Part shown: positions 2,116-38,863 of the stretch, in pieces
How the letters are laid out: each line of letters opens with the position of its first letter
Numbering within the stretch: the first letter of the stretch is position 1
Assembly (NCBI RefSeq): GCF_030013205.1
Contig: NZ_CP122648.1
Strand: one strand, 5' to 3'
Source of the DNA: Escherichia coli
GTDB lineage: Bacteria > Pseudomonadota > Gammaproteobacteria > Enterobacterales > Enterobacteriaceae
DNA length: 64,000 nt
The notes under the pieces: model-generated
Database searches by the model: none
Told to the model about the DNA's origin: nothing
The model's input: the letters and a program-made list of their open reading frames with translations, nothing else
Made by a program: the position numbers and the translations under genes

Positions 2116-3015
2116 CTAAACAGCACCTTTATACTTCAGCCTATCTATAAATAATGAGAATGCCGAGCCAGCATGTCGACGGTGTGGATAGTACAGGTGA
2201 TAACCGGGTAAATCTGGTGTGAATTTATCCAAAACACGTATCAGTTTTTATTCTTTAATAGCCCGCTCAACTTGATCATAAGGTAGATACGCCAATCCAT
2301 GCCCATCAATTGCAGCATCAATGATCAGGTCTATCGTATTCAGTAAAAGCTGACCTTCCATGCGAACACGAACTTCACGTCCACCGCGTATTAATCTCCA
2401 GCGATTTGCTGTACCCGATGTGGGAAGATACAAATTAATTGCCTGATGATCTATTAATTGTGACACTGACGTTGGAGCACTTCGACGAGAAAAATAATCC
2501 GGTGAGCCAACAATAGCCATTGGTATATCTGGCCCGATTCGAATGGCGATCATATCTTTATCCATCTCCCCACCCAGACGGACGCCTGCATCAAAACGTT
2601 CAGAAACGACATCGGTCAAACCATAATCAATGGTAAGCTGGATATCAATTTCAGGATGCGATTTCAGGAATGTGCGCATAGCTGGTAACAATATCGTTTT
2701 TGCTGCATGTTCTACAGTAGTAATACGTATTGTCCCGGATGGGCGGTTCTGCAGATCGCTCAGGGATGTCAGGGCAGAATCTATGTCATGCAACATAGGG
2801 CCAAGAACAGACAAAAGATGCTCGCCCGCTTCAGTGGGTACAACGCTGCGCGTGGTTCGCGTCAGAAGCCGCAATCCCAATCGTTCTTCTATACGGCGCA
2901 CTATCTGGCTTAAAGCTGACTGCGCCATGCTCAGGCGGGCTGCTGCGCGAGTGAAGCTACGCTCCTCTGCAACGACGACAAACGCCATCAGATCAGCGAT
3001 TTCTTCACGCTTCAT
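2116..3015 (-). pseudogene. pgrR: LysR-family regulator PgrR interrupted by an in-frame TAA at 2248-2250; expressed ORF 2248-3015 is 255 codons
   Basis: N-terminal LysR HTH (MKREEIADLMAFVVVAEERSFTRAAARL...). Translating past the TAA in the same frame gives KLIRVLDKFTPDLPGYHLYYPHRRHAGSAFSLFIDRLKYKGAV then TAG at 2116-2118, a typical LysR C-terminus. 255 + 1 + 43 = 299 codons, the length I recall for PgrR. Confidence 0.75.
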
Positions 3016-4803: not shown

Positions 4804-5079
4804 GTGGCTTCTGTTTCTATCAGCTGTCCCTCCTGTTCAGCTACTGACGGGGTGGTGCGTAACGGCAAAAGCACCGCCGGACATCAGCGCTATCTCTGCT
4901 CTCACTGCCGTAAAACATGGCAACTACAGTTCACTTACGCCGCCTCTCAGCCCGGTACGCACCAGAAAATCATTGATATGGCCATGAATGGCGTCGGATG
5001 TCGCGCCAGTGCACGCATTATTGGCGTTGGCCTCAACACGATTTTCCGCCACTTAAAAAACTCAGGCCGCAGTCGGTAA
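4804..5079 (+). CDS. insA: IS1 InsA
   Basis: 91-aa ORF with zinc-finger-like CPSCS...CSHC N-terminus; matches recalled InsA. Confidence 0.9.
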
Positions 5080-5501
5080 CCTCGCGCATACAACCGGGCA
5101 GTGATGTGATTGTCTGCGCTGAAATGGACGAACAGTGGGGCTACGTCGGTGCTAAATCACGTCAGCGCTGGCTGTTTTACGCGTATGACAGGATGCGGAG
5201 GACGGTTGTGGCGCACGTCTTCGGTGAACGCACTCTGGCCACACTGGAGCGTCTTCTGAGCCTGCTGTCGGCCTTTGAGGTCGTGGTATGGATGACGGAT
5301 GGCTGGCCGCTGTATGAATCACGCCTGAAGGGAAAGCTGCACGTTATCAGCAAGCGTTATACTCAGCGCATTGAGCGGCATAACCTGAATCTGAGACAAC
5401 ATCTGGCAAGGCTGGGACGGAAGTCACTGTCGTTCTCAAAATCGGTGGAGCTGCATGACAAGGTCATCGGGCATTATCTGAACATAAAACACTATCAGTA
5501 A
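4998..5501 (+). CDS. insB: IS1 InsB (transposase catalytic part, made as an InsAB' fusion by -1 frameshift)
   Basis: 167-aa ORF overlapping insA in the -1 frame; matches recalled InsB. Confidence 0.85.
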
Positions 5502-8185: not shown

Positions 8186-9727
8186 TTACTCTTCGTTCTT
8201 CTTCTGACTCAGACCGTATTCCCGCAACTTATTGGCAATCGCGGTATGCGAAACGCCCAGGCGTTTTGCCAGTTTGCGCGTGCTGGGATAATTGCGATAA
8301 AGCTGGGTTAATACCGAGCGTTCAAAACGGCTGGTGATTTCGTCCAGCGAACCTTCCATCGCATCTTCGCCCACGGCTACCGTTGCGGCGTCATAATCCG
8401 GTAACAAAATATCCTGTGGACGCAGCTCATAACCGTCCAGTTGTGTCAGTGCGCGATAAATAGCGTTCTTTAACTGCCGCACATTTCCCGGCCACGCATA
8501 ACGCGTAAGTACAGTATTCAGGTCAGCGGCCAGTTTCGGACGCGGCACGCCCTGCTCGTCGGCAAAGCGGGCGACGAACAGCTCGGTTAACGGCATGATG
8601 TCCTGCGGACAGTCACGTAGCGGCGGCAGATTAAGCGTCAACACGTTCAGACGATAATAAAGATCTTCACGGAACACGCCTTTTTGCACCAGTTCGACAA
8701 GATTCTTCTGCGTCGCGCAAATCACCCGCACATCGACATGCACCTCATGGTCTTCGCCAACCCGACGGAAAGTGCCATCATTAAGGAAACGCAGTAATTT
8801 CGCCTGCATCCGTGGTGACATCTCACCTATTTCATCCAACAGCACCGAACCACCGTTCGCCTGCTCAAAGAACCCTTTCTTCCCTTCCGGAGCATGACCA
8901 AACAGTTCACTCTCGACCGCATCTTCCGGTATAGACGCACAGTTCAGCGCCAGATAGGGTTTGCCCGCGCGTGGGCTTGCCTGATGACAGGCATATGCAA
9001 AGAGATCTTTTCCGGTGCCGGTATCACCGGTTATCAGCAATGGCGCGCTTAGCATCGCCAGTTTCTGCGCCTGTTCGACAACATGCTTCATTTTCGGGCT
9101 GACGGCGACAATTTGACTGAAGGCGCTGACGTCCTGGGCGGCGACATTTTGCAACTGACGACCCATACGAATCGTTGATCGCAACATCACCACCGCACCG
9201 GTCAGGACGTGTTGATCATTTTCATCCTGAAGATAAACAGGCGTAATCTCCATCAGGAAATTCTGTCCATTAATAACGACATGCTCGTTATGGGAATCCT
9301 GCGGTTCGCTTTCCAGCCAGCGTAAAAAATTAAAGCCGTTAATCAATTGCGCGGCGGTATGGTTGCGCAGGCGATCCAATTTTTGCCCAAAAAGCTGACA
9401 GCTCGCCGGGTTCGCCATATCCACTTTGCTTTTCATATCGACAGAGAGCACAGGTTCAGGCAACGCTTCCAGTAACGCGCTCAACGCCAGATGCTCACGT
9501 TCAGAAGGCATCCACGGGACAGTACGGACATCGGTAACACCTGCAATACGGCGTATTTCGGCCATCAGACTGCTGAAACTCTCAAACTCCAGTTCAGCAA
9601 AATTGAGGTAGATTCGCCCAATGGGATCAATCTCAATACCGCGTAAATCAATGCCTCTTAGCACGAGTAGATCGAGTAATTCGCGGGTCAGACCGAGTCG
9701 GTCTTCACAAAAGACTTCCAGACGCAT
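8186..9727 (-). CDS. tyrR: Sigma54-type enhancer-binding-protein-family regulator TyrR
   Basis: ORF 8186-9754; start placed at MRLEVFCEDR to give 513 aa. Recognised by sequence recall. Confidence 0.9.
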   Translation of the reverse strand: MRLEVFCEDRLGLTRELLDLLVLRGIDLRGIEIDPIGRIYLNFAELEFESFSSLMAEIRRIAGVTDVRTVPWMPSEREHLALSALLEALPEPVLSVDMKSKVDMANPASCQLFGQKLDRLRNHTAAQLINGFNFLRWLESEPQDSHNEHVVINGQNFLMEITPVYLQDENDQHVLTGAVVMLRSTIRMGRQLQNVAAQDVSAFSQIVAVSPKMKHVVEQAQKLAMLSAPLLITGDTGTGKDLFAYACHQASPRAGKPYLALNCASIPEDAVESELFGHAPEGKKGFFEQANGGSVLLDEIGEMSPRMQAKLLRFLNDGTFRRVGEDHEVHVDVRVICATQKNLVELVQKGVFREDLYYRLNVLTLNLPPLRDCPQDIMPLTELFVARFADEQGVPRPKLAADLNTVLTRYAWPGNVRQLKNAIYRALTQLDGYELRPQDILLPDYDAATVAVGEDAMEGSLDEITSRFERSVLTQLYRNYPSTRKLAKRLGVSHTAIANKLREYGLSQKKNEE

Positions 9728-9874: not shown

Positions 9875-10936
9875 TTATTTTTCGCTGGGCGTTTTGCCTT
9901 TTTGCAGAGTTTCTTTCACCTGACCGATAAGCTGACGACGGAAATCCCCGAGGCGTGGCTTGTCATCGTCAATCCACGGCAGCGGGCGGCAAAGCTCCAT
10001 AGCTTTAATCCCCAGTCGTGCCGTCAGAAGTCCTGCACCAATCCCCTGAGCTGCGCGGGTAGACAAACGCGCAGCGAGATCTTGCGACATCCAGTCCATC
10101 CCCACTTCGCGAACCAGTTCGCTGGCTCCGGCGAAAGCGATATTCAGCAATACCAGCTTGAACAGGCGCAAACGGCTGTAATACCCCAGTTCAATGCCAT
10201 ACAGCGTGGCGATGCGATTAATCAAACGCAGATTGCGCCAGGCGATAAATGCCATATCCACCAGCGCCAGCGGGCTAACGGCGATCATTAACGTTGATTC
10301 CGCTGCCGAACGGCTGATTTCGCGCCGTGCCTGGGCATCTAAAACCGGCTGGACCAGATGAGCATACAGGCTGACCACTTCACGATCGTTCTGCGTTTCA
10401 TGGATTGAGGCATACCAGCGTTGCAGCGCCGGATGCGACTGATCAATACCCGCCTGCTGCGCCAGTTTTTCGCAGAATGCACGGCCTTTACCCGTGCCGT
10501 GACTGTGCAACAAATCGCGCGCTTCGTCGCGTTCATGGGCGCGCTGTCGCAAGCGCCATAAGCGCCGCCACTCTGTTACCACAGAACCTACGCCAGCGCC
10601 GATAATCAATGCCCCAGCGGCACATCCACCCAGCGCCACCCAGTCCTGGGTTTGCCAGGCGTTCATTGTCCACTGTACACCCTGCCCGACAACGCTTGCG
10701 CCAAACAGAGCCAACCCGCCCATCACCATTTTGCGCCACAGGCTGCGTTTCGGACGTAACGCTGCATCCATTACCGCTTCAACTTGCCCCTCTTCTTCCT
10801 GCGCTTCATCGAGCGTGGCCGGGGCAAAATTTTGCGCCTGATTTTCGTCAAAGGTCTGCTGCACCCTGAATTTTGGATTCTGATCGACCTCCAGTGGACC
10901 GTCGAAATCAATACGTGGTTTTAACGGTTCGGTCAT
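9875..10936 (-). CDS. ycjF: Inner-membrane protein of unknown function (UPF0283 family)
   Basis: 353-aa ORF with central hydrophobic segments; overlaps the ycjX stop by 4 bp. Confidence 0.85.
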
Positions 10937-12330
10937 CGCAATTTATCTCCTATTAAAAATTCCAGCGCAGCATCAAGGCGAATATGCGGCAGCGGTTTGT
11001 CGACATCCATCACCTGCGGACGAAACGCCTCAAACTGGAAGCCTTGCTTATCCCAGAACGCCTGACCAGGCAAACGTGCGGGAACTTCGCCAGGATAAAC
11101 AGTGAGCGGTGCGCCATCACTGAGTCGATTACCGCGCAGCGCCGGGATTTTCTCACCGTTAACATCAATAATGCCGCTGGTGGTCGCCTGAACTGACGCC
11201 AGCCCCAGGCAGTCCATGCTGATCCCTTCGAACGCCGCATTTTGCCAGGCATCCTGAATTAGTTGTTGCAGTAATGAAACCATATTGGCGTGCTGATCGA
11301 TGGTCACATGGTCTGCTTTAGTCGCAGCAAACAATAGCTTATCGATAACCGGCGAAAACAAACGCCGGAACAGGGTTCGCTGCCCGTAGTGGAAACTTTG
11401 CATCAGCTGCGTCAGCGCCAGACGCATATCATTAAATGCCTGTGGCCCACTGTTGAGAGGCTGCAGGCAATCCACCAGCACAATCTGGCGGTCAAAGCGC
11501 AGAAAATGATTCTTATAGAACCCCTTCACCACCTTCTCGCAATAATAATTAAAGCGCTCGCGCAGCATTCCGGCATTGGTATGCTTATCGGCCTGCGCCA
11601 GTTTGGACTCGCCCCAGGCATCGACATCCGGCCACGGGAAGAATTGCAGCGCGGGTGCTCCTGCCATATCTCCCGGCAAGACAAAGCGCCCAGGCTGAAT
11701 AAAGTGCAACCCCTGCTGTTTGCAGTGGTGGAGATACTCGGTCCAGGCGGCGGCAATGTCTGCCAGCCGGTTTTCGTCGGCAGGCGCTAGCGGGTCCAGC
11801 CCTTCGCACATCATTCGCCATTTCGCCGACCATTCGCCGCGCTGACCATTGAGTAAGCCCGTCATCTGGCGCGACCAGCTTAAATAGTCCTGCGCCAGCA
11901 TCGGCAGGTCGAGCAACCATTCGCCGGGGTAATCCACAATTTCCAGATACAGCGTGGAGGTGTCCTTAAAGTGGCGTAGCAGCGAATCGTTCGATTTAAA
12001 ACGTAACGCCAGGCGAATTTCACTGACGCCGCGCGTAGGCGTCGGCCAGGCGGGAGGATCGCCATATAACTGCGCCAACCCTTCATCATAGGTGAAGCGC
12101 GGAATGCCAAAGTCACGCTGGGGAATGCGTTTTACGCCCAGCAGGCGCTCTTCACGCACCGCACTTAAAAGCGGCAAACGTGCTCCGGCATGAATATTAA
12201 GCAACTGATTAACCATCGCGGTGATAAACGCTGTTTTGCCGCTGCGGCTAAGTCCGGTTACAGCGAGGCGCAGATGTCTGTCGACACCCCGATTCACCAG
12301 CGCATTAAGTTCATTTTTAAGTCGCTTCAT
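10933..12330 (-). CDS. ycjX: P-loop NTPase of unknown function
   Basis: 465-aa ORF; Walker A motif GLSRSGKT near the N-terminus. Confidence 0.85.
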
Positions 12331-12372
12331 TGCTGTCCTGTGGACCAGAAAAAACCATCAGTAATGATATGA

Positions 12373-12400
12373 ATGTGGGGGCCAGGCCATTGATTATCAA
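12373..12400 (-). promoter_or_regulatory. Candidate sigma32 promoter for ycjX-ycjF (-35 TTGATAA, 12-13 nt spacer, -10 CCCCCACAT)
   Basis: Read on the minus strand about 35-70 nt upstream of the ycjX start; fits CTTGAAA-N13-15-CCCCATNT. ycjXF are heat-shock regulon members as I recall. Confidence 0.45.
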
Positions 12401-12473: not shown

Positions 12474-13472
12474 ATGCCCCCTACTATTTATGATATTGCC
12501 AGGGTTGCAGGCGTATCAAAATCCACCGTATCACGCGTGCTGAATAAGCAAACCAATATCTCCCCGGAAGCGCGCGAAAAAGTGTTACGGGCCATTGAAG
12601 AATTACAGTATCAACCAAACAAGCTGGCACGCGCGCTGACCTCTTCGGGTTTTGATGCCATTATGGTGATTTCTACCCGTTCGACCAAAACTACGGCGGG
12701 TAATCCGTTTTTCTCGGAAGTTTTACATGCCATCACCGCCAAAGCTGAAGAAGAAGGTTTCGACGTGATATTGCAGACGTCGCACAACCTGGCAGAAGAC
12801 TTACAAAAATGCGAAAGCAAAATTAAGCAGAAAATGATTAAAGGCATTATTATGCTAAGTTCGCCAGCGGATGAGTCATTTTTTGCCCAACTCGATAAAT
12901 ATGATATTCCGGTGGTGGTAATTGGCAAAGTTGAAGGTCAATATGCCCATGTTTATTCTGTCGATACCGATAATTTTGGCGACAGCATTGCGTTGACCGA
13001 TGCGTTAATTGAAAGTGGGCATCAAAATATTGCCTGCCTGCATGCACCGCTTGATGTCCATGTTTCGGTTGACCGCGTTAATGGTTATAAGCAGAGTCTG
13101 GAAGATCATAATATTGCAGTGCGCAATGAGTGGATTGTTGACGGCGGTTATACCCATGAAACAGCCTTGCAAGCCGCACGGCAATTATTAAGCCAGTCGC
13201 CGTTGCCAGAAGCCGTATTTGCCACTGACAGCCTGAAATTAATGAGCATTTATCGTGCGGCAGCAGAGAAAAATATTGCTATTCCGCAGCAGTTAGTGGT
13301 GGTGGGTTATAGCAATGAAACGCTGTCATTTATTTTAACGCCTGCACCGGGCGGCATCGATGTTCCGACGCAGGAGTTAGGGCAACAAAGCTGCGAGTTA
13401 TTATTCCGCTTAATTGCCGGAAAACCGTCACCACAAAATATTACCGTTGCCACGCATATGTCGTTGAAATAA
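12474..13472 (+). CDS. ycjW: LacI-family transcriptional repressor
   Basis: 332-aa ORF with N-terminal LacI-type HTH ([20 protein letters not shown]). Confidence 0.85.
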
Positions 13473-13477
13473 ATGTA

Positions 13478-13509
13478 TGCCGGATTTGGCGCTCGCGCCG
13501 CATCCGGCA
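13478..13509. repeat. REP-like palindromic element between convergent ycjW and ompG
   Basis: Contains CGCCGCATCCGGCA, the reverse complement of the REP core GCCGGATGCGGCG. Confidence 0.45.
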
Positions 13510-13522
13510 ATTTAACCCATTA

Positions 13523-14428
13523 TCAGAACGAGTAATTTACGCCGACACCTGCATAATGGAATTTATCGCTGTCGCCTTCGTCGTGATCCTGCCACTCAAA
13601 CGCGTATTCCAGCGAAACGGAAAGACCATTCTGGAAATCATAACCGTAAAATAACCCCACACGGTTAAAATCATGGCCTTCACGTTCAATATCATCCTGC
13701 CAGTCCCAGTTACTCCAGCGATCCAGCCCAATGCGCGTATACGGCGTCACCGAGTGGTTGCCGAGCGTCAGCGGCAAATAGGCATGAATTTCTTGCGTGG
13801 AAAACTCACCGTTATTGCGACTGTCGTCCATATTGAAGCCGCGCTCGAGATAATAGTTCACTCGCAAAGCAACCGTTTCGTTGAAGGTATATTGCAGACC
13901 TGTTTCCGTTTCGACTCGGGTATCAGCGTAACCGGTCGTGTTCAGATCGTTGGCAAATTTATACATCGATAACCAACCGTTGAAACGTAAATCGTCAGTC
14001 AGTTTCACATCCCAGTCTGGCGCGATTTTCCAGCGCTGCATATTCGCCGTGTCTTTACCCGGTTCATCAACGTAGTGATAACCATAATTACGGAAACCGC
14101 CGGTCAGCCCGAAACTGAAATCATCGCTTTCGAGGAACTGATAATGCACCTCCAGCTCCGGGCGATCAAACCACGTTCCACGTTTACCCGCGCTATAATC
14201 TACCGGCCCTTCCTGATAATAGGCCAGAGAAATTCTCCACGGCCCGTTGGCGGCATTAAAATAGACAGAAGGCTCCGCGAGCCCATCCATATCTTCGCCA
14301 TAACCCTCGACGTTTTCTATTTCGTACATCGCGCCGATATTAAAGTGCCAGTCGTTCTTTTCCTCGGCCTGTGCGCAAGCCATTCCCGCACACATCACCA
14401 GTGCGGTACAAGGTAATAATTTTTTCAT
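13523..14428 (-). CDS. ompG: Outer-membrane porin OmpG
   Basis: 301-aa ORF with signal peptide and C-terminal aromatic residue (...GVNYSF). Confidence 0.9.
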   Translation of the reverse strand: MKKLLPCTALVMCAGMACAQAEEKNDWHFNIGAMYEIENVEGYGEDMDGLAEPSVYFNAANGPWRISLAYYQEGPVDYSAGKRGTWFDRPELEVHYQFLESDDFSFGLTGGFRNYGYHYVDEPGKDTANMQRWKIAPDWDVKLTDDLRFNGWLSMYKFANDLNTTGYADTRVETETGLQYTFNETVALRVNYYLERGFNMDDSRNNGEFSTQEIHAYLPLTLGNHSVTPYTRIGLDRWSNWDWQDDIEREGHDFNRVGLFYGYDFQNGLSVSLEYAFEWQDHDEGDSDKFHYAGVGVNYSF

Positions 14429-14472
14429 TATTGTTCCTTGTATTATCCTGGGGGAATGCCTTCCCCCTGTAT

Positions 14473-15555
14473 TTAGCGAATTGCTATTTCCATTTCTGCA
14501 TCAAAGAAATGACATTTAGTCATATCAAAATGAATAGTGATATTTTCTCCTGCATGATAATCATTTAACGCACCAGCACGGACCACCAGTTCGTGCCCCC
14601 CAACCGTGGTGTAGAGCATAAATTCAGCACCGGTTAATTCTGCCACGCTAATTTTGGCGGAAATGTTATTTTCCTCTTGCGCGTCCGGATGAATATCTTC
14701 CGGGCGTATTCCCATCACGATGGGCTTATGCAAACTTTCCTGTGTTTTCAGAACCGCTAATTTCTCTTCGGGAATGGTTAATTTAAGCGTTTCAGTAACG
14801 AATTTATCGCCATCGATCGTGCCGCGAATAAAATTCATCGCCGGTGATCCAATAAATCCGGCAACAAACATATTCGCGGGTTGGTTATAAACCGTTTTCG
14901 GCGCACCTACTTGCTGAACAATCCCATCCTTCATAATCACAATCCGCGTCGCCATGGTCATCGCTTCGGTCTGATCGTGGGTCACGTAGATCATGGTGGT
15001 GTTCAGTTTCTGATGCAGCTTGCTGATCTCTGCGCGCATTTGTACGCGCAGCTTGGCATCAAGGTTAGAGAGCGGTTCATCCATTAAAAACACGCCCGCT
15101 TCGCGCACAATCGCCCGCCCGAGCGCCACACGCTGGCGTTGCCCGCCGGAAAGCGCCCCCGGCTTGCGTTTCAGGTACTCTCGCAGACCGAGAATTTGCG
15201 CCGCCCAGTTCACCCGCTCATCAATCACCTCTTTGGCGATTTTTTGCATCTTCAGGCCAAACGCCATGTTGTCGTAAACCGTCATATGCGGATACAACGC
15301 GTAGTTCTGGAACACCATCGCGATATTGCGTGCTTTGGCTGGAACGTCGTTCATTCGTTTGCCGTCGATCAACAGATCGCCGCCGCTGATCTCCTCAAGC
15401 CCGGCAATCATGCGCAGGGTGGTCGATTTACCGCAGCCCGACGGGCCGACAAATACGATGAACTCTTTATCGGCAATTTCCAGGTTGAAGTCCTTCACCA
15501 CATGCACCTGGTTATCGTAGATTTTTTGAATATGTTGTAACGAAAGCTGAGCCAT
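14473..15555 (-). CDS. ycjV: ABC transporter ATP-binding protein (MalK-like), intact here
   Basis: 360-aa ORF with Walker A GPSGCGKST and signature LSGGQRQR. Confidence 0.85.
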   Translation of the reverse strand: MAQLSLQHIQKIYDNQVHVVKDFNLEIADKEFIVFVGPSGCGKSTTLRMIAGLEEISGGDLLIDGKRMNDVPAKARNIAMVFQNYALYPHMTVYDNMAFGLKMQKIAKEVIDERVNWAAQILGLREYLKRKPGALSGGQRQRVALGRAIVREAGVFLMDEPLSNLDAKLRVQMRAEISKLHQKLNTTMIYVTHDQTEAMTMATRIVIMKDGIVQQVGAPKTVYNQPANMFVAGFIGSPAMNFIRGTIDGDKFVTETLKLTIPEEKLAVLKTQESLHKPIVMGIRPEDIHPDAQEENNISAKISVAELTGAEFMLYTTVGGHELVVRAGALNDYHAGENITIHFDMTKCHFFDAEMEIAIR

Positions 15556-15568
15556 GTTGATTCCTTTG

Positions 15569-16228
15569 CTATACGTTTTGCCAGAAGGCCGATAACCGCG
15601 GCCAGGTGAGTGATTCCGTTGAGGGCAACAATAATTGCGCCCCGGTTAAGCCTGCGCCGATCCCCACCGAGCGCATACCGCTGGCGTTAATGGCGTCAAT
15701 GCCCGCCTGCGCATCTTCAATGCCGATACATGCCTGCGGCGGCACGCCCAGTCCGGCACAGGCGGCGAGAAAGATTTCCGGGTCCGGTTTCGAGTTTTTA
15801 AGTTGGGAAGCGTCCGCGCAGAAGGTGAAAAACTCACGCAGCTCCAGTGCATCTAAAATCGTCGGCGCATTGAGGGAGACAGAAGCCAGCCCTACCGGGA
15901 TCTGTTGTGCACGGAGATCTGTCAGCAAAGAGCGAATGCCGGGCAGCACAGCATTAACCGTCAGTTCGCGCAATGAATGGACGTAGAGCAGATTTTTGCG
16001 ATACGCCAGTTGCGCCCGTTCCTGTGGGTTAAAATCGCCCTCTTTACCCCCGTGTTGCAGAATGCGGCGCAGAGACTCATCGCGGCTGATCCCTTTTAGA
16101 GTTTCGTTAAACTGCGCATCAATGCTGATGCCAATTTCAGCGGCAATCTGCTGCCACGCCTGGAAATGCAGATGCGCGGTATCGGTGATTACTCCATCCA
16201 GATCGAAAATTACCCCTTGCAGTTTCAT
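15569..16228 (-). CDS. ycjU: Beta-phosphoglucomutase (HAD superfamily)
   Basis: 219-aa ORF with HAD motif I ([10 protein letters not shown]). Confidence 0.85.
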
Positions 16229-18492
16229 TCATTCTCCTGATGCGTGGTAGCGGTCCCATTGAAGGGCAAAATAAAATCACCCAAACAGAAAACAGATTCT
16301 TCAGCCACAGATATAAGCTGCCCGTTCAAACGCAGTGAAACGGGCGCAGAAGTTCGAATCGCAATACGCTGCGCGTCGAGAGTGACCTGTAATTCGCAGC
16401 CCTGCCAGAACAGAGGGAAAGACAACTGTTGCCACTGCACAGGTAACGCCGGATTCAAATTTAATTCACCGTCACGCACGCTCACCCCGGCAAAACCCTG
16501 AATCGCCCCCAGCCAGATAGCGCCAGTTGCGGCAGCATGGATACCGTCGTCGCAGCTATGCGGGTCAGCACCGAGATCGATTTCAGTCCCCTCCCGCCAG
16601 AACTGATAACTTTGCGCCAACAGGCCACAGCGTGCGGCAACAATGCCGTGGATCGCTTTACTCAGTGAAGAGTCGTGAATGGTGCGCGGTTCATAAAATT
16701 GCAGATTGGCAAGACACGATGCCGCTGAGTACTGCTCCGGCAGCATGTAATTGAGCATCACCACATCAGCTTGTTTGAGGATCTGCATCTCGTTCACTTC
16801 TGCGCGTGAATAATCCAGCAGAATGGTTTGCTTCCCCGCCGCCGCTTTGTATTTCGCCAGATTAATCGCTGGTTTCGCCATAAACGAATCATCCTGCGGC
16901 AAAACGCCGTCGGGCTGAATTTCTGGCAGCCGCAGTTCTTTAAGGAACATTTCGGCGCGATGGATAAATGCATCGTCGCTACAGCCAAACTGGCGGGCAA
17001 TACTCAGCGCCTGCTGGACGTTGTAATACGCCATATAGCTGGTGAAGGCGTTATTATTGACATGTTCGGTATATTCGTCAGGCCCAATAACATCATGAAT
17101 TTCCAGACGGTCGTTAACCCTCACCGCGCGGCTAATCCAGAACTTTGCAGTTTCCAGAAGTAGCGCCATGCCTTCATGCGCAATGAAACTTTCATCCCCC
17201 GTGGTCTGCCAGTATTGAATAACCGCCCAGGCGATATCGGCCACCAGATGATGTTCCGCCTGCGCCGAGGCCACTTTTTGCCGCAGCCCGGTGCGAATGT
17301 TAATGGCGGCAAATTCCGGCGTCTCTTCTTCGCCGCTGCGCGCGCTTTCCCACGGAAATAGCGCGCCCTGCCAGCCGTTGCGTCGCGCTTTCTCCTGCGC
17401 GCCTGGCAAGTTGTGCCAGCGATAACGCAGTAAACTTCTGGCAATCGTCGGTTCGCTAAACAGATGGAACGGCAGTAAAAATACTTCCGTATCCCAGAAA
17501 ACGTGGCCTTTGTAGCCTTCCCCGGTCAAACCTTTTGCCGCAATACTGCTGCGCTCGTCGTGAGCAGGCGTCATGATGCGTAGGTGATAAAGCGCATAAT
17601 CTAACGCTTGCTGATCGTGCGCATCGCCACCGTTTACCGTGATACGACGTTTCTGCCACCATTGACGCCAGTTTTCTGTGGATGCTGCAAGAAGTTGGTC
17701 GTAACTCTGCTGTACACACATTTCAAGCTGACGAAGCGACGCACTGCCCCACTCGTCTAAAGCGACGTGCCTGTCATCCCGCCAGTCGATCCACACCAGT
17801 TTTTGCAGCGTCAGCGTTTCGCCTGCGTGAAGTTGCGCACTGGTATGTTGCAGCAAGCGGCGCTCTTTGGCGGTATAGCATTGCTGCACATCACCGCTCA
17901 CCTTACAGCAACAGCTGATGGCCACATCACTGCGCCCATCCTGGGTGGTGTAGATCCCCTGCATCAGATGCTGACCAAATACCCGCACCTGGGTTTCGTC
18001 GAGATGTTGGCGACCGTGGTTGGTTTGCGTGGCGTCAATGCCTGTTGAAATCAGCACTGACGCGTCGGCGTCCAGCGCAGTAATAGTGATTTCCAGTGCA
18101 ATCAGCGGCAGGTGGTCTGCCGAAACAAAGCGACGGCTGGCGATGGTGTAACGCGCGCCGTTGCTGGTACACCAGACAACGTTGCGGCGTAATTCGCCAC
18201 TGGCAAAGTCAAGCTCACGCTGCCATGTTTCGCGGGATAACGAGAAAACCTCACCATTTATGGCAATCTCCATCCCCACGACATCAGGCAGGTTCACCAG
18301 TTCGTTGATTTCACCCTTACCCGCTCGATGATACAGCCCCGCCAGATACATGCCGCGCGTCTGGCGCGTGTAATCTTCTTCATGGCTGGCGCGAAGCCCA
18401 AGATAGCCGTTCCCCTGCGCCATCAGTGAAGCATATTTGTTCAGGGTATGCTGGCTGAAATGGGGTTCTGATAACGTTACTGGCCTGGTCAT
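16225..18492 (-). CDS. ycjT: Glycoside hydrolase family 65 phosphorylase (kojibiose phosphorylase)
   Basis: 755-aa ORF; 4-bp overlap with ycjU and ycjS. Confidence 0.85.
16243..16259. promoter_or_regulatory. 17-bp exact repeat (minus strand ATGGGACCGCTACCACG) 15-31 nt upstream of the ycjU start; candidate YcjW operator
   Basis: Identical 17-mer at 26172-26188 upstream of ycjM. Operator assignment is inference. Confidence 0.35.
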
Positions 18493-19544
18493 AATTCCAC
18501 ACGCGTCCCTGTTTCTGCGGATTGATACAACGCCGCCACCAGTTGCTGGATGATGTATCCCTGCTCGGCGTCGGCTATCATCACGGGCTTGCCCTGTACG
18601 TGATTGATAAAGGATTCCATACTGCGCAGATGACGGTTGTCGTCTGCCATTTCCCGTTGCATCAGCGTCATTAACTCACCGTTGTTATCGGTATAGATAT
18701 GTGCTGGAAACAGCGTTGCACCAGCTTTATCACCACAAAAGCTGACGTTCATAATCGACTGTTCGCGGATGTTGAGTGCAAATGACGTTTCCAGCCACAG
18801 AATGCCGCCGTTATGAAATTCAATGGTGCCAAATAACGAATCTTCGACGCTGTAAGTTGCCGGATCCCACTCGCCAAATTGACCACAGCTCTTTTGTGTG
18901 CCGATCTTTTGAAAGCTATGCGCGGTCACGCTTTTCACCGCCGGAAAGCCCAGTACATACATCGCCGCATCCAGCATATGAATGCCGATGTCGATCAGCG
19001 GCCCGCCGCCCTGCAATTCTTTATTGGTAAAAACGCCCCAGCCGGGAACGCCGCAGCGACGCAGGGCGCGGGCGGTGGTAACGTAAATCTCTCCCAAAAC
19101 GCCGTTGGTCACCTGTTCACGCAGCTGTTGCGTATCGAGTGCAAAACGATGGTGAAAGTCGTAGGCCAGCACCTTGCCCTGTTTGCGCGCGGTATCGCAC
19201 ATTTCCCGCGCCTGTTCTGGCGTCATGGCGGGCGGTTTTTCGCACATCACATGGCAGCCCGCTTCCAGCGCCATCAGGGTATGTTCGTAATGAAAACGGT
19301 TAGGTGAGCAGACGCTAACCACATCAGGTTTCACCGCCAGCAGCATGGCCTGCGGATCGTCCCACACGGATGCATTCCCGTATTTTTCTGCCAGCGCCTG
19401 CGCCTGGGAAAGGCGGCTGTCACAGACAGCCACCAGTTCCAGATCGTTGCGGGTGCAGTAGTACGAAGCATGAACCTTATCCGCCACCTGGCCTGCGCCG
19501 ATTATCGCGACCCGCAGTGGAGAGCTTGTCATTGCACTTTTCAC
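18489..19544 (-). CDS. ycjS: Gfo/Idh/MocA-family NAD-dependent oxidoreductase
   Basis: 351-aa ORF with N-terminal Rossmann motif (VAIIGAGQVA). Confidence 0.85.
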   Translation of the reverse strand: MKSAMTSSPLRVAIIGAGQVADKVHASYYCTRNDLELVAVCDSRLSQAQALAEKYGNASVWDDPQAMLLAVKPDVVSVCSPNRFHYEHTLMALEAGCHVMCEKPPAMTPEQAREMCDTARKQGKVLAYDFHHRFALDTQQLREQVTNGVLGEIYVTTARALRRCGVPGWGVFTNKELQGGGPLIDIGIHMLDAAMYVLGFPAVKSVTAHSFQKIGTQKSCGQFGEWDPATYSVEDSLFGTIEFHNGGILWLETSFALNIREQSIMNVSFCGDKAGATLFPAHIYTDNNGELMTLMQREMADDNRHLRSMESFINHVQGKPVMIADAEQGYIIQQLVAALYQSAETGTRVEL

Positions 19545-19553
19545 AAAGACCTC

Positions 19554-20342
19554 TTAGCAGGTACGCAACCAGGCCAAAGAATCACGGTACGCCTGGGCAG
19601 GATTTTCTGCCCGGATACGCCCTTCATACACCACATAACCCTGATAGTTATCGGCGCGCAGCTGTTCAAACAGCGCGTGGAAATCGAGGGTGCCGCTGCC
19701 CGGCTGGTAACGATGGTTATCGGCAATATGCACATGACCGAGCAGGTCGCGGTTGTCGTGCAGCGCCTGCGCCAGGTTATCTTCTTCGATATTCATGTGA
19801 TAGAAATCGCCGATAATCTGCACATGTTTAAGATCGTTTTCGACGATGTAACGACGAGCATCGGCGAGGGTGTTGATCATGTGATCCTGATAGCGGTTTA
19901 ACGGTTCGAGGTACACCACGGTTCCGGTACGCGCGGCTACCTGTTCCAGCACGCGCAGGGAATCACTCACCATTTTGCGGTCGCCATCCAGGCTGCGCGG
20001 CGAGGTCATCGGCGGTAAACGGAAGGTAAACATGCCCCATGCAGCAGGAACGACGATACCTTTACCGCCCACTTCGGCCAGCGCTTCAAGAATGCGTTCG
20101 ATCTGCTTTAAGCCATTAAGACGACGCTCTTCGATAAAGTCGCCAATCCAACCGTCATAGCCACCGCAGGCGGTGGTCACCGGTAAGCCGGTTTCTTTGA
20201 TTGCCGCTTTGACTTCTTCGATATTGTTGACCAGCAGTTTGCCGTCAATCTCAAAAATATCGAAGCCCATCTCTTTGATATAACGAAATTTCTCCAGAAT
20301 GTTTTCTGGAAAGAACGCCTGATTCTGTGTGCCGATTTTCAT
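19554..20342 (-). CDS. ycjR: Sugar-phosphate isomerase/epimerase (TIM-barrel)
   Basis: ORF 19554-20351; start tentatively placed at MKIGTQ to give 262 aa. Confidence 0.8.
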   Translation of the reverse strand: MKIGTQNQAFFPENILEKFRYIKEMGFDIFEIDGKLLVNNIEEVKAAIKETGLPVTTACGGYDGWIGDFIEERRLNGLKQIERILEALAEVGGKGIVVPAAWGMFTFRLPPMTSPRSLDGDRKMVSDSLRVLEQVAARTGTVVYLEPLNRYQDHMINTLADARRYIVENDLKHVQIIGDFYHMNIEEDNLAQALHDNRDLLGHVHIADNHRYQPGSGTLDFHALFEQLRADNYQGYVVYEGRIRAENPAQAYRDSLAWLRTC

Positions 20343-20360
20343 TTTTATCATTCCTTTGAA

Positions 20361-21413
20361 TTAAAACGTGACGCCCATTTTGATGCTCTGTTCCGGATGC
20401 TGGTCGACATACTGCATGTAACTTTCCGGGCTATTGGCAAAGGTCACCACCGGGTCGATTAAATCTTCACAATTGAGATAACCGTTCATCAGCAGTTCCC
20501 AACAGGTTTCTTCGATACGTTTGCGGCTCCAGCGCGGATAATCCGGGTTCGGCTCGCTGCACGCACGGGAGAAAACAATTTTGGCGTTATTGAAATGGGC
20601 TTCGCGTCCGAGGTTAAAACCTTCGGCAAACGGTTTGGCAAACGCGACATACGAGATGGTGCCGCCATATGCCAGGCCGCGAAGCGCCGATTGCAGCGCG
20701 TCGGCGTAACCGCTGGTTTCGATAATCACATCGGCACCCTGCTTGCCGGTCAGCGTTTTGATCTCTTTGCCTACGTCAGTGCCAATAGGGTTAAGGCAGA
20801 AATCCGCACCGTGTCGACGAGCAATATCACAACGATGGGCAATAGGATCGACGCCAATTACCACCGATGCGCCAGCGCGTTTCGCCAGTTGGATGGCAAT
20901 TTGACCGATCGCGCCAAGCCCTACCACCACGACAAAATCCCCTACGCGCACGTTGGCATCGCGCACGCCGCTCATGGCAAACTGCGCCGGGTCGTAGCAG
21001 ACGGCGTTTTTCCACGAACTGCCTTGCGGCATTTTGCGCAGCTTGTAGTTATTCACCGCGTTAATGATGACCGTTTCGGAAAGCGGGCCGTAGCCGCATA
21101 CGCTGTCGCCCACCGCGTAGTCGGTAACGTCGCTGCCGCACTCGATAATGTCGCCAACCACCATGTTGCCAAGCTGGAATTTGCCAAACTCAATGCCGCG
21201 CGGCGCATCTGCCGGACGCGGGGTAAACATCTGCCATTCGCCGTTAAAGTCTTCATCGATAAACGGGCTGGCGGCGCGGAAATCGACCACTTCCGTTCCA
21301 TGTTTCGGCGCGCCGAAACGCACGCGGATCTTCACTTCATTGGCTAAAATCGCCCGATCTTCATACTCAACCAGCGCAGCTACGCGCGGTGCTGTGGCTA
21401 CTAACTTTTTCAT
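20361..21413 (-). CDS. ycjQ: Zinc-dependent medium-chain dehydrogenase
   Basis: 350-aa ORF with GxGxxG NAD-binding motif (VVGLGAIGQ). Confidence 0.85.
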   Translation of the reverse strand: MKKLVATAPRVAALVEYEDRAILANEVKIRVRFGAPKHGTEVVDFRAASPFIDEDFNGEWQMFTPRPADAPRGIEFGKFQLGNMVVGDIIECGSDVTDYAVGDSVCGYGPLSETVIINAVNNYKLRKMPQGSSWKNAVCYDPAQFAMSGVRDANVRVGDFVVVVGLGAIGQIAIQLAKRAGASVVIGVDPIAHRCDIARRHGADFCLNPIGTDVGKEIKTLTGKQGADVIIETSGYADALQSALRGLAYGGTISYVAFAKPFAEGFNLGREAHFNNAKIVFSRACSEPNPDYPRWSRKRIEETCWELLMNGYLNCEDLIDPVVTFANSPESYMQYVDQHPEQSIKMGVTF

Positions 21414-21443
21414 GTAAAACTCCTTGTAAAGAAACTGGCCGCT

Positions 21444-22286
21444 TTAGCCCTTCACGCCACCGGCGGTCAAACCACTCTTAATAAAACGCTCCGAAAGCGC
21501 ATACATAATCACCACCGGCAATGCGGTCACCAGTGAGGCCGCCATCATCCGTCCCCAGATGTAATCAGGCGTACTGAACAGCGCGTTCAGGCCCACCGGT
21601 AAGGTGAAATTGCTGGCGCTGGAGAGGAAAATCGACGCAAACAGATAGTCGTTCCATGCCACCATAAAGCAGTAGACGAACACGGATATCAGCCCCGACA
21701 TCGCCAGGGGCACGGTGATACGGAAGATGATTTGCAGACGGTTGAGGCCATCCATCATCGCCGCTTCTTCGATCTCATCAGGGATGGTGTCGAAGTAGCT
21801 TTTCAGCATAAACACGGCGGTGGGCAGGGTTTGCGTCACCATGGTAATGATCAGCGCCATCTCGGTGTCGTAAATGCCCAGCGCGGTGATGATTTTGAAC
21901 AGCGGCACCACCAGCAAAATGCCAGAGAACATATACACCGTGTAAAAGCTGGCATTGATGGTCATCCGACCTTTAAAGCGCAGGCGGGAAAGCGCGTAAG
22001 CCCCAAGAATGCCGAGGAATACCGCCACCACGGATGAAACCACCGACACCACCAGACTGTTACGGAAGTAGTCGACAAACGGGAAAATCATCGGGTTAAA
22101 AATGTCGACGTAATGCTCCAGCGTCCACTGCTGCGGCAGCAGCGTAGGATGCAGTGAGATCGCCTCTTTCGCGCCCTTGAACGAGGTCATCAGCATCACA
22201 AAAAATGGAAACAGCGTGATGATGAGAAACAGCGCCAGCCCGCAGTAAAAACCGATGCGACTGAGTGTGCGTTTATTTGTTGCCAT
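21444..22286 (-). CDS. ycjP: ABC sugar transporter permease
   Basis: 280-aa multi-pass membrane ORF. Confidence 0.85.
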   Translation of the reverse strand: MATNKRTLSRIGFYCGLALFLIITLFPFFVMLMTSFKGAKEAISLHPTLLPQQWTLEHYVDIFNPMIFPFVDYFRNSLVVSVVSSVVAVFLGILGAYALSRLRFKGRMTINASFYTVYMFSGILLVVPLFKIITALGIYDTEMALIITMVTQTLPTAVFMLKSYFDTIPDEIEEAAMMDGLNRLQIIFRITVPLAMSGLISVFVYCFMVAWNDYLFASIFLSSASNFTLPVGLNALFSTPDYIWGRMMAASLVTALPVVIMYALSERFIKSGLTAGGVKG

Positions 22287-23154
22287 TGAGGTTCACCCGT
22301 TTCCTGGTCAGCAGAATGACAGCGAAAATAATGATGAAGAGCACCACCGAGATCGCCGCCGCTTTTCCTAAATCATTAAAGGCAAAGGCGGTTTTGTAGA
22401 GATATACACCGAGAATATCGACCTTGGTCGTCAGCAAATAAACATCCGCGAACATGTAGAACATCCAGATGGTGCGCAGGGTCACCACCGTCGCCAGGAC
22501 CGGCATAATCGCGGGCAGCGTGACGATGCGAAACCGTTGCCAGGCATTAGCGCCATCCATCTCTGCCGCTTCGTACAGCGATTTGTCGATGGTCTGCAAA
22601 ATCGCCAGAAACGAGATGAAGGCATACGGGAAGTAGCGCCAGATGGCGAACAGCACCACCAGCACAAAGCTACTGCCCGGATTATCGAACCACAGCGGCG
22701 CCTGCTCGTAGAGATGCAGAAGATCGACGCCGAGGTAGTTCACAATGCCGTAGCCGTTGTTGAACATGTATTTCCAGGCGAACACCAGCGAAATGGACGG
22801 CGTTACGTAGGAGAGGATCACCAGCGAACGCGCGGTTTTGCGCAGGCGGAACTCGCGGTTGAAAAACATCGCCACGGCCAGCCCGAGTACGGTGCTGCCC
22901 GCCACCACCAGCGCCGTATACCAGACCGTCATCCACAGCGAGTGCCAGAAGCCGGGATCGGAGAGAATGCGCACATAGTTACTCACCCCAACAAACGTTG
23001 ACTCGATGTTGGGATTGAGCGGCAGACGTAAAAAACTGATTTCGATATTCGACACCATCGGCCACGCCACCAGACCGCCCAGCAGTAATAAGCTGGGCGC
23101 GAGAAGCAACAGCGCAAAGGGCATATCGGAACGACCTGAAAAAAGCCTGTTCAT
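22273..23154 (-). CDS. ycjO: ABC sugar transporter permease
   Basis: 293-aa multi-pass membrane ORF; overlaps ycjP. Confidence 0.85.
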   Translation of the reverse strand: MNRLFSGRSDMPFALLLLAPSLLLLGGLVAWPMVSNIEISFLRLPLNPNIESTFVGVSNYVRILSDPGFWHSLWMTVWYTALVVAGSTVLGLAVAMFFNREFRLRKTARSLVILSYVTPSISLVFAWKYMFNNGYGIVNYLGVDLLHLYEQAPLWFDNPGSSFVLVVLFAIWRYFPYAFISFLAILQTIDKSLYEAAEMDGANAWQRFRIVTLPAIMPVLATVVTLRTIWMFYMFADVYLLTTKVDILGVYLYKTAFAFNDLGKAAAISVVLFIIIFAVILLTRKRVNLNGNK

Positions 23155-23174
23155 TGCGGATTCCTGTCCTGGGT

Positions 23175-24467: not shown

Positions 24468-24481
24468 GAGATGTTCCTTTT

Positions 24482-26161: not shown

Positions 26162-26171
26162 GTTGCCTTTC

Positions 26172-26188
26172 CGTGGTAGCGGTCCCAT
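26172..26188. promoter_or_regulatory. 17-bp exact repeat (minus strand ATGGGACCGCTACCACG) 11-27 nt upstream of the ycjM start; candidate YcjW operator
   Basis: Identical to 16243-16259. Sits at the head of the ycjM operon, overlapping the ribosome-binding region. Confidence 0.35.
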
Positions 26189-26374: not shown

Positions 26375-26689
26375 TTAACCTTTGACCTTCGGCATTGCGA
26401 TGTCTTTCAGGCCACCGGCGTTCTCAACGTGGGTATATCCCATCTCGCTAAGGATCTCTTTTGCCTGCCCTGACTGGCGTCCGGCATTGCAATACACTTT
26501 CACGGTGTCGTTTTTATCCGGAACGGCGGTGGCAATGCGCTCTTTTACTTCCTTCAGGGGAATATTGATGGCCCCCTGAACGTGCTCTTGCTGATACTGC
26601 TCTGGAACACGAACATCGATCCAGTGTTCAGCGGCGAAAACGGGCAGTGAAAACACCAGTGTCAGAGCAAGTAAGCCTTTTTTAAACAT
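26375..26689 (-). CDS. pspE: Periplasmic rhodanese (thiosulfate sulfurtransferase)
   Basis: 104-aa ORF with signal peptide and rhodanese active-site Cys. Confidence 0.9.
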   Translation of the reverse strand: MFKKGLLALTLVFSLPVFAAEHWIDVRVPEQYQQEHVQGAINIPLKEVKERIATAVPDKNDTVKVYCNAGRQSGQAKEILSEMGYTHVENAGGLKDIAMPKVKG

Positions 26690-26763
26690 GTAAGCGTCCT
26701 TCTATGGATGAAAATTGCCATCCATAATATGCCTTAGCTTTAACAATTTTTGCGAAACTCCCC

Positions 26764-26985
26764 TCACCTTTTATAACGCTGCGCCAGTTTATTGGCAGCC
26801 CGACTTAACAGCGGTTCCAGCGCCACGGCCAGCAACATTTTCAGTGGTCGGCGAGCAACTGATTTTATCGCCCAGCCAGCTACACCCGCCGGGCCATAGC
26901 GCAGTGCGGTAAGAAGTACCAGCTTGCCTGCTAATTTGAAACCAGGCTTCACCTTTTGCCCGGCCTGTTGCCAGCGAGTATTCAT
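26764..26985 (-). CDS. pspD: Phage shock protein D
   Basis: ORF 26764-26997; start placed at MNTRWQQ to give 73 aa. Confidence 0.8.
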
Positions 26986-26993
26986 AACTTTCC

Positions 26994-27577: not shown

Positions 27578-27630
27578 AAGGACTCCTTAGACGATGAGCG
27601 GCGGCGCGTTCGGACGCCGCCTGGATGTTA

Positions 27631-28371
<741 letters not shown>

Positions 28372-38830: not shown

Positions 38831-38863
38831 TTATTTCATTGCAGACGCTCGGTCAGTATCGTT

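Follow-up and report, generated by a model that had tools for sequence, protein, structure and literature searches.

Among the systems closest to the locus described here is the pspA operon of Yersinia enterocolitica, pspABCD-ycjXF (Darwin laboratory), of which ycjX and ycjF are reported to form part; non-polar deletions in Yersinia gave robust phenotypes for pspF, pspA, pspB and pspC only. The two genes have been described as adjacent 'in almost all species' (PMC3041696), and DUF463, the family of YcjX, is present also in 14% of the genomes without any Psp domain. For E. coli, psp and ycjXF were described by Huvet et al. as being expressed under different conditions, so that they may not interact functionally.

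At the protein level, the structure of the YcjX orthologue of Shewanella oneidensis has been solved (PDB 6NZ4, 6NZ5 and 6NZ6; Tsai et al. 2019, J Mol Biol 431:3179, as cited in PMC11237479) and, as far as the names of these entries and the title of the paper indicate, binding and hydrolysis of GTP are described for this orthologue. Another group of comparable systems is that of the DO-GTPase/GAP1 type (Kaur et al. 2020, PMC7159879), built on TRAFAC GTPases with a glutamate in Walker B, in which transmembrane components are frequent and to whose DO-GTPase family the psp-linked GTPase was assigned by Ravi et al. (2024). Bacterial dynamin-like proteins such as LeoA and BDLP are, in turn, GTPases that remodel membranes.

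The ycjXF module is a 'known unknown' and not a discovery. Both genes, their promoter, the fold of the GTPase and the link to psp have been published before. The present analysis adds the near-universal ATGA coupling of the genes, the division of lineages between those with a sigma32 promoter and those with the pair embedded in psp, the sugar island that lies between ycjXF and psp in E. coli, and the confidently predicted fold of YcjF, which has no solved relative, with its strikingly conserved polar core.

Organization of the ycjX-ycjF locus

The window analysed is the whole 64 kb stretch of DNA, and its ycjX and ycjF genes, correctly named in the sequence-only reading, can be identified with essential certainty as those of the E. 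coli chromosomal operon ycjX-ycjF(-tyrR). The locus is 100% identical to E. coli chromosomes and was found, annotated as ycjX, in 5415 of 5426 complete E. coli genomes. Its main features are the following:

10933..12330, minus strand: ycjX coding sequence (open reading frame of 465 aa), YcjX-family (DUF463) GTPase
9875..10936, minus strand: ycjF coding sequence (open reading frame of 353 aa), inner-membrane protein (DUF697 / TIGR01620 / UPF0283)
12336..12339, minus strand: Shine-Dalgarno sequence AGGA of ycjX, 5 nt before the ATG
10933..10950, minus strand: translational-coupling junction ycjX/ycjF, with GGAG, 10 nt, then ATGA
8186..9727, minus strand: tyrR (from the annotation), co-oriented and downstream of ycjF, third gene of the ycjXF-tyrR unit

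The AGGA/GGA block upstream of ycjX is kept in the intergenic alignment. At the junction, which reads ...GCG ATGA CC on the minus strand, the ATG of ycjF (10936..10934) and the TGA of ycjX (10935..10933) are shared in an overlap of 4 bp, as the sequence-only reading had claimed, and a GGAG (10950..10947) stands 10 nt before the ycjF ATG. Both genes are translationally coupled through this ATGA overlap. Downstream, a ycjXF-tyrR transcription unit is recorded in RegulonDB (quoted in PMC3041696 and PMC5934670), and no terminator-like (intrinsic) site was found in the gap between ycjF and tyrR. A search for RNA elements around the ycjXF operon gave no Rfam match at E values up to 1.

YcjX is a predicted Ras-like GTPase

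YcjX matched PF04317 (DUF463) over its full length (E 2e-181; 604 bits against a cut-off of 25), the alignment spanning residues 20-464 and the whole profile (1-443 of 443), and no Pfam family besides DUF463 was found at E 0.1 or better. A weak esterase match in the Pfam search was spurious. The guanine nucleotide-binding motifs are located as follows:

12232..12255, minus strand: G1 / Walker A GLSRSGKT, residues 26-33
11920..11934, minus strand: G3 / Walker B DYPGE, residues 133-137, with the family-typical glutamate
11311..11322, minus strand: G4 guanine-specificity motif TKAD, residues 337-340

The Walker A sequence is thus present where it had been noticed from the letters of the DNA, and its G26, G31, K32 and T33 were invariant in both YcjX alignments, as was the complete DYPGE, E137 included. 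K338 and D340 of the G4 motif likewise showed no variation in alignments containing the crystallised protein of Shewanella, and the three motifs are invariant across the E. coli, Vibrio and Shewanella proteins.

A profile search of the PDB with YcjX returned YcjX entries only, with 6NZ4/5/6, named 'YcjX stress protein', matching at E 1e-124. The Shewanella protein is 47% identical to that of E. coli over residues 6-464 and shares with it G1, G3 (DYPGE), G4 (TKAD) and the single-domain PF04317 architecture, but its structure is solved whereas E. coli YcjX has none of its own. By class, YcjX is a soluble GTPase of the Ras-like (TRAFAC) type and belongs to the YcjX/DUF463 family, its activity being predicted from sequence. 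The earlier description of the pair as an NTPase and a partner with no assigned function still holds in the sense that no published biochemical function was found in the literature naming ycjX or ycjF, but it is somewhat outdated for the NTPase itself given the structures of its orthologue. Neither the Pfam search nor the PDB profile search detected in YcjX a GTPase domain of the dynamin type, the kind found in dynamin-like membrane-remodelling GTPases.

YcjF is a predicted membrane protein with a conserved polar core

YcjF matched PF05128 (DUF697; E 1e-55, 188 bits against a cut-off of 27.7) and TIGR01620 over residues 10-336 (E 3e-129, 431 bits against a cut-off of 160), and its weak Pfam matches consisted of just a sub-threshold EcsC (E 0.027). 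The polytopic membrane protein recognized beside the NTPase in the sequence-only reading is borne out by prediction, with four hydrophobic spans in the hydropathy profile (residues 69-88, 98-123, 210-236 and 256-279) that are distributed between two regions:

10568..10732, minus strand: YcjF transmembrane hairpin, residues 69-123 (hydropathy and flanking charges)
9914..10390, minus strand: YcjF DUF697 core, residues 183-341 (Pfam match)

The hairpin is flanked on both sides by segments rich in Arg and Lys, predicting an N-in orientation with the loop outside. An AF2 model of YcjF was confident (pLDDT 85.9, pTM 0.74) and all-helical, with helices 66-95 and 99-144 covering the hairpin region and predicted cytoplasmic helices at residues 125-210, and no solved structural relative of this model was found. 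Conservation was counted over 105 representatives of 50%-identity clusters, among which D200, D227, R234, Y246, G298 and R317 of the core are invariant, and S221, P222, W233, E273, S292, Q297, R307 and G309 nearly so. In the N-terminal tail, Phe11, Phe29 and Phe37 are conserved. No domain fusion turned up among the 150 best cluster representatives of the YcjF subfamily; those of greatest length differ only in having longer disordered N-termini.

YcjF is therefore predicted to be an integral inner-membrane protein with two clear hydrophobic helices and two more within the DUF697 core, which may either span the membrane or form a bundle in the cytoplasm. Its predicted layout starts with an acidic N-terminal tail in the cytoplasm, followed by a single transmembrane hairpin and the highly conserved core.

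ycjXF is transcribed from a sigma32 promoter

The sequence upstream of ycjX was scored against the sigma32 consensus TTGAAA-N12-15-CCCCATNT, which revealed two elements:

12395..12400, minus strand: sigma32 promoter -35 TTGATA, 5/6 match to TTGAAA (TTGATAA in the sequence-only reading, 12394..12400)
12373..12380, minus strand: sigma32 promoter -10 CCCCACAT, 6/7 match to CCCCATNT (CCCCCACAT in the sequence-only reading, 12373..12381)

The complete promoter sequence, cagTTGATAAtcaatggcctggCCCCCACATtc (12400..12373, minus strand), has the form TTGATA-14 nt-CCCCACAT, matches the consensus at 11 of 13 positions with a spacer of 14, and ends 42 nt upstream of the ycjX ATG. Only 3 sites in the full 64 kb, both strands counted, reach this score, and about 0.003 such matches would be expected by chance on the relevant strand of the 143-nt intergenic region. 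Across genera of the Enterobacteriaceae the box is the only conserved block of an otherwise diverged intergenic region (alignment consensus TTGATnC...CCCCATnTnATA), with the -35 conserved as TTGAT; in 11 of 17 loci the -10 is kept as CCCCATnT and lies 43-53 nt before the ATG, whereas outside this family a sigma32-like box was detected in 5 of 63 loci and at scattered distances. Conservation of the box is confined to the Enterobacteriaceae.

In vivo data agree with this assignment. The sigma32 ChIP signal at ycjX is 2.9, equal to that of dnaK (PMC2996942), a ycjX sigma32 promoter is cited in PMC3041696 from Nonaka 2006 and RegulonDB, and both ycjX and ycjF are early heat-responsive (PMC7572479). 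The single mismatches in the -10 (CCCCACAT vs. CCCCATNT) and in the -35, together with a sigma70-like pair further upstream on the same strand (12519..12490), could be read as signs that the box is coincidental and that another promoter drives ycjXF, but the low chance expectation, the fixed position of the box in Enterobacteriaceae and the concordance of sigma32 occupancy, heat induction and published assignment leave this reading with a negligible probability and already effectively refuted. Therefore, ycjXF is transcribed from a sigma32 promoter, the good match given in the sequence-only reading being backed by experimental data, and both proteins accordingly increase in parallel within minutes after heat shock or other envelope damage that induces sigma32.

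The sigma32 regulon of Nonaka et al. (2006) reportedly contains members that act at the inner membrane, such as htpX and ftsH. These resemble ycjXF in promoter class, in early heat induction and in having one partner in the membrane, but they are proteases with known substrates, whereas YcjXF lacks any protease or chaperone domain.

Relationship with the phage-shock operon

The sequence-only reading missed the most informative context of the locus, which is its long-known link to the psp operon. Two further features of the window are relevant here:

26375..28299, minus strand: pspABCDE operon, ancestral upstream neighbour of ycjX
12474..26188: ycjM-V/ompG/ycjW sugar-utilisation island, which separates psp from ycjX in the E. 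coli window

The end of pspE (26375) and the start of ycjX (12330) are in this way about 14 kb apart. In contrast, pspABC(D/E) lies directly upstream of ycjX and co-oriented with it in around 59 of 80 species; pspE is 120 nt from ycjX in E. albertii, and pspD is at only 4 nt in Yersinia, Serratia, Pantoea and Rahnella. As pspD abuts ycjX in Yersinia, Serratia, Pantoea and their relatives, there is no room for a ycjX promoter of its own in these genomes. The operon of Y. enterocolitica resembles the present one in gene order (ycjX, then ycjF), in the ATGA overlap and in its envelope-stress context, but it differs in that its ycjXF has no promoter of its own, whereas the E. coli pair has a sigma32 promoter. 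No sigma54 box was found upstream of ycjX in a scan that scored the pspA control at 10/11, and in the window ycjXF is neither within the psp operon nor co-transcribed from its PspF/sigma54 promoter.

ycjXF descends from the 3' end of the psp operon and has been detached from it here by the sugar island; the psp-ycjXF linkage is ancestral and has been lost in the genome of the window. The increase of ycjX and ycjF, in RNA as well as in protein, during phiX174 lysis also supports a link of the pair to envelope stress. The split between lineages with an own sigma32 promoter and those in which the pair is embedded in the psp operon is clean.

Comparison of the locus among 80 species

At least 590 homologous loci were retrieved with a peptide pattern from the YcjX alignment (the DYPGE stretch), and loci of 80 species were compared. 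In all 80 ycjF directly follows ycjX, and 70 of them, from Escherichia to Vibrio, share the ATGA overlap. Overlaps of 4 bp are common in bacterial operons generally, and it could be argued that YcjX and YcjF do unrelated jobs and that their overlap reflects genome compaction within a stress operon. Reports of YcjX-YcjF binding, or of a phenotype for either protein, were not found in the accessible literature, and a model of YcjX and YcjF fused through a 25-residue Gly-Ser linker, based on a shallow paired alignment of 16 rows (16 genomes), gave no confident interface (pLDDT 64.3, pTM 0.46, with the N-tail of YcjF at pLDDT 24-43). However, the adjacency and the overlap persist across lineages that differ in upstream gene, in promoter and in downstream spacing, and the presence/absence profiles of ycjX and ycjF across the phylogeny are nearly identical, which makes independent functions improbable. 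A YcjX-YcjF complex at the membrane is the likely arrangement.

Downstream of the pair, tyrR is directly adjacent in around 73 of the 80 loci. Together with the RegulonDB unit, the lack of a terminator-like site between ycjF and tyrR, and the report by Ravi et al. of psp operons that carry both an ACT-PAS NtrC-like regulator and the GTPase, this co-transcription and synteny might indicate that ycjXF serves in the regulation or transport of aromatic amino acids. Nevertheless, the gap between ycjF and tyrR can be as short as 90 nt or exceed 5 kb, insertions being found there in Kluyvera, Hafnia, Dickeya and Yersinia, neither YcjX nor YcjF contains a domain related to the binding or transport of amino acids, and the inducers are heat and envelope damage, not aromatic amino acids. 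We give this function very little credence.

The identity of YcjX tracks taxonomy, from 99% down to 50%, indicating vertical inheritance, and the neighbours (psp genes, ycjF, tyrR and tpx) are constant in the 80 species, without a second YcjX-like hit in any locus. These data bear on the kinship with DO-GTPase/GAP1 systems, according to which YcjX would be an anti-phage or abortive-infection switch and YcjF a membrane-disrupting effector released on infection. The assignment by Ravi et al., the TRAFAC fold, the DYPGE glutamate, the frequent membrane context of those systems and the rise of ycjX and ycjF RNA and protein during phiX174 infection and lysis are in line with such a role. However, while the Walker B glutamate is found here, the paired paralogous GTPase and the neighbourhood of variable effectors are not, nor is there a GAP1-like three-domain partner among the neighbouring genes. 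The genes belong to the core genome at a fixed position and are driven by the housekeeping heat-shock sigma factor, and a search with defence-system profiles gave no PADLOC match at ycjXF. A conflict system is thus very unlikely.

Discussion

The above results are best explained by a stress-induced GTPase switch that acts with YcjF at the inner membrane and assists the heat-shock and Psp envelope responses in an accessory capacity, a function that we consider probable, if far from assured. YcjF would be the membrane receptor or effector of YcjX, and YcjX would alternate between its GTP and GDP states on it, on the cytoplasmic side of the inner membrane. This cycle may switch an activity that resides in the polar, conserved core of DUF697. 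Under stress, such an activity could help to preserve the inner membrane, or the proteins in it, or to repair them, and ycjXF would act in parallel with PspA and with the genes for membrane quality control that sigma32 governs.

A bolder version, to which we assign a low probability, is that the DUF697 core is a previously unseen membrane-embedded fold in which Asp200, Asp227, Arg234 and Arg317 together with Glu273 build an ion or lipid site gated by the GTP cycle of YcjX. If this were true, YcjXF would be a device gated by GTP that works with PspA to relieve damage to the inner membrane or to repair it, and one that lineages have rewired from PspF/sigma54 to sigma32 control.

With respect to the biology of E. 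coli, ycjXF belongs to the small set of operons that are bound by sigma32 and strongly induced by heat but have a cellular role still to be assigned. That it is inherited together with the phage-shock operon suggests a part in maintaining the inner membrane, and a role for the YcjX GTPase at the stressed membrane would fill a gap in both the heat-shock and the Psp fields.

Gene layout and conservation of the ycjXF locus

The two genes of the pair (ycjXF) were located as follows:

10933..12330, minus strand: ycjX, an ORF of 465 aa with GLSRSGKT at residues 26-33
9875..10936, minus strand: ycjF, an ORF of 353 aa

Their junction reads GGAG-10 nt-ATGA, with a 4-bp overlap of the ycjX stop codon with the ycjF start codon, so both the Walker A protein and the overlap claimed in the sequence-only reading were found. 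The region was matched in 5415 of 5426 complete E. coli genomes, with tyrR, ycjF, ycjX and ycjW as the annotation there; several swine E. coli chromosomes were 100% identical over the 2.8 kb around ycjXF, and strain K_EC180 showed 99.98% identity to the window across 32.5 kb. The locus is the already catalogued ycjXF(-tyrR) operon; its two proteins are members of the YcjX and YcjF/DUF697 families, and the operon itself is a member of the sigma32 regulon.

A scan with a YcjX alignment of one genome per species confirmed at least 590 loci, 80 of which (Enterobacterales, Vibrionaceae and Aeromonas) were kept for comparison. The ATGA overlap was present in 70 of these, and ycjF was directly 3' of ycjX in all 80, an adjacency that makes independent functions for the two proteins unlikely. 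The GTPase YcjX and the membrane protein YcjF are produced jointly, from translationally coupled genes of invariant order. The tyrR gene was downstream in ~73/80 loci; beyond this synteny and read-through into tyrR, nothing points to a role linked to TyrR.

The promoter of ycjX

On the minus strand 5' of ycjX, the sequence TTGATAA-tcaatggcctgg-CCCCCACAT (12400..12373) ends 42 nt from the ATG and matches 11 of the 13 specified positions of the sigma32 consensus used for scoring (TTGAAA-N12-15-CCCCATNT). Counting both strands, just three sites in the 64-kb window score at least as high as this box, which gives a chance expectation of ~0.003 for the relevant strand of the 143-nt spacer. When the upstream regions of 16 Enterobacteriaceae genomes were aligned, the gene 5' of ycjX varied by genus (ycjW, pspE or pspD), and the sole block conserved in this diverged alignment was TTGATnC...CCCCATnTnATA, 5' of the ribosome-binding site. 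A score of at least 10 was reached at 43-53 nt from the ycjX ATG in 11/17 Enterobacteriaceae loci, and in 5/63 loci of other families at scattered distances. A sigma32 promoter at ycjX was reported by Nonaka et al. (2006) and RegulonDB, according to the passages of PMC3041696 that quote them; the sigma32 ChIP value of ycjX (2.9) equals that of dnaK and is the top value of that table (PMC2996942), and both ycjX and ycjF are among the early heat-responsive genes (PMC7572479). Therefore, a chance match is excluded by the expected number of sites, the conserved block and these published data, and the sigma32 promoter proposed from the sequence holds. No sigma54-type box was found 5' of ycjX, while the window's pspA promoter, used as a positive control, scored 10/11.

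Further sites and genes observed in the window were:

38813..38839, minus strand: 11/13 sigma32 match between puuP and sapA, without a co-oriented gene downstream
16029..16055, plus strand: 11/13 sigma32 match within a pgmB-like gene, on the opposite strand
12490..12519, minus strand (that of ycjX): sigma70-like match TTGATA-18 nt-TATCAT (10/12), inside the ycjW start, ~160 nt 5' of ycjX
2116..3015, minus strand: pgrR (ycjZ) with an internal stop codon (...AIKE*KLIRV...), leaving a 255-aa ORF vs. ~299 aa
4749..~5500, plus strand: IS1 copy (left inverted repeat at 4749; InsB-like ORF 4998..5501) adjoining a frameshifted SDR oxidoreductase gene, between ycjY and mpaA

The first two, the only other 11/13 sigma32 matches, are probably due to chance, and the third may be either an additional promoter of the housekeeping type or a chance match. 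As PgrR is listed among the regulators of ycjXF-tyrR (PMC5934670), this layer of control has probably been lost in the strain.

YcjX belongs to the DUF463 GTPase family

YcjX matched Pfam PF04317 (DUF463, YcjX-like) over its whole length (E 2e-181) and PDB 6NZ4, 6NZ5 and 6NZ6 ('YcjX stress protein'; E 1e-124), the crystallised orthologue being 47% identical to the E. coli protein in the alignment. These entries are reportedly those of Tsai et al. 2019. The GTPase motifs G1 (GLSRSGKT), G3 (DYPGE, 133-137) and G4 (TKAD, 337-340; guanine specificity) are kept in E. coli YcjX and were invariant in alignments with the crystallised orthologue and Vibrio proteins. No hydrophobic segment was found in YcjX, and no further Pfam or PDB family was matched at permissive thresholds.

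The psp-linked GTPase has been assigned in the literature to the 'DO-GTPase' family, whose Walker B glutamate YcjX carries, as would be expected of an anti-phage conflict system of this type. However, neither a paired GTPase, variable effectors nor a GAP1-like partner was found around ycjXF in the 80 loci, PADLOC gave no match at ycjXF, and the locus is core, syntenic and inherited vertically; by the features tested, ycjXF is not such a system. A dynamin-like system was likewise rejected by the features tested.

YcjF has a conserved DUF697 core

YcjF matched DUF697 (PF05128, residues 183-341) and TIGR01620, and no PDB relative was found by sequence. Among 1.84 billion cluster representatives, 1471 clusters of relatives were identified, nearly all full-length representatives having 330-400 aa; among the 150 best, longer relatives differed only by longer disordered N-termini. 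The AlphaFold2 model (alignment of 105 diverse sequences) was confident (pLDDT 85.9, pTM 0.74) and all helical, with four predicted parts: an N-terminal tail, acidic and little conserved except for three phenylalanines (residues 11, 29 and 37); a transmembrane hairpin (69-123), in agreement with the membrane partner described from the sequence, whose Arg/Lys-rich flanks on both sides imply an N-in orientation; a cytoplasmic helical segment; and the DUF697 core. This core is far more conserved than the rest of the protein, with D200, D227, R234, Y246, G298 and R317 invariant and S221, P222, W233, E273, S292, Q297, R307 and G309 near-invariant, and two helices within it are sufficiently hydrophobic for membrane embedding. 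Residues 223-272 (window ~10121..10270, minus strand), among the most conserved DUF697 helices, gave a sub-threshold match to EcsC (PF12787; E 0.027, 14.6 bits vs. a cut-off of 30.4), another membrane protein without known role, to which DUF697 may possibly be remotely related.

Linkage of ycjXF to the psp operon

In ~59/80 loci, pspF and then pspA-B-C with or without pspD and pspE were directly 5' of ycjX and co-oriented. A gap of 4 nt separates the stop codon of pspD from the start of ycjX in Yersinia, Serratia, Rahnella, Pantoea and Tatumella:

~9990-10001 in compared loci L018, L019, L024, L026, L030, L034, L038, L043, L050 and L056: 4-nt pspD-ycjX junction, no sigma32-like box

Such a gap leaves no room for a dedicated promoter, and ycjXF must be read there from the psp promoter, in agreement with the pspABCD-ycjXF operon published for Y. 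enterocolitica (PMC3467454). In Enterobacteriaceae the spacer is 50-300 nt, in most cases with the sigma32 box inside. Judged from these upstream regions, the same gene pair has apparently undergone a lineage-specific switch of regulatory input, sigma32 box vs. psp embedding. Variable psp linkage was already documented by Huvet et al. (2010; PMC3041696) in 32/81 operons, the promoter comparison being explicitly left as a future task.

In the window, the 14-kb ycjM-V/ompG/ycjW sugar-utilisation cluster (12474..26188) separates pspE from ycjX. In E. albertii (L002) and in one E. coli-labelled genome (L003) the cluster is missing from this position and pspE ends ~120 nt from ycjX, so that it looks inserted into an ancestral psp-ycjXF-tyrR array. 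In this genome ycjXF is outside the psp operon, though descended from it; the pair looks like an ancestral tail of that operon which gained heat-shock control in one family and was parted from psp in E. coli.

A putative membrane switch under stress control

The pair is under stress control, through sigma32 here and through the psp operon elsewhere, and envelope damage by phiX174 increases RNA and protein of both genes. YcjF would anchor YcjX to the membrane and probably act as its effector; the GTP/GDP state of YcjX may govern the activity of the conserved polar DUF697 core, with an output that would aid the inner membrane under stress; lipid or ion handling, PspA recruitment or membrane-protein quality control could be this output. 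We consider a YcjX-YcjF complex at the membrane somewhat probable. The prediction for a fused YcjX-linker-YcjF (16-row paired alignment) showed no confident interface (pLDDT 64, pTM 0.46). Against the membrane model, 14% of the genomes that lack Psp domains carry DUF463, and Yersinia deletions outside pspF, A, B and C had no robust phenotype (PMC3467454).

The 39 papers found to name ycjX or ycjF gave no published function for the pair, as the sequence-only reading had held, although that reading missed both the structures of 2019 and the link to psp. The ycjXF pair is a tractable 'known unknown' of modest interest.
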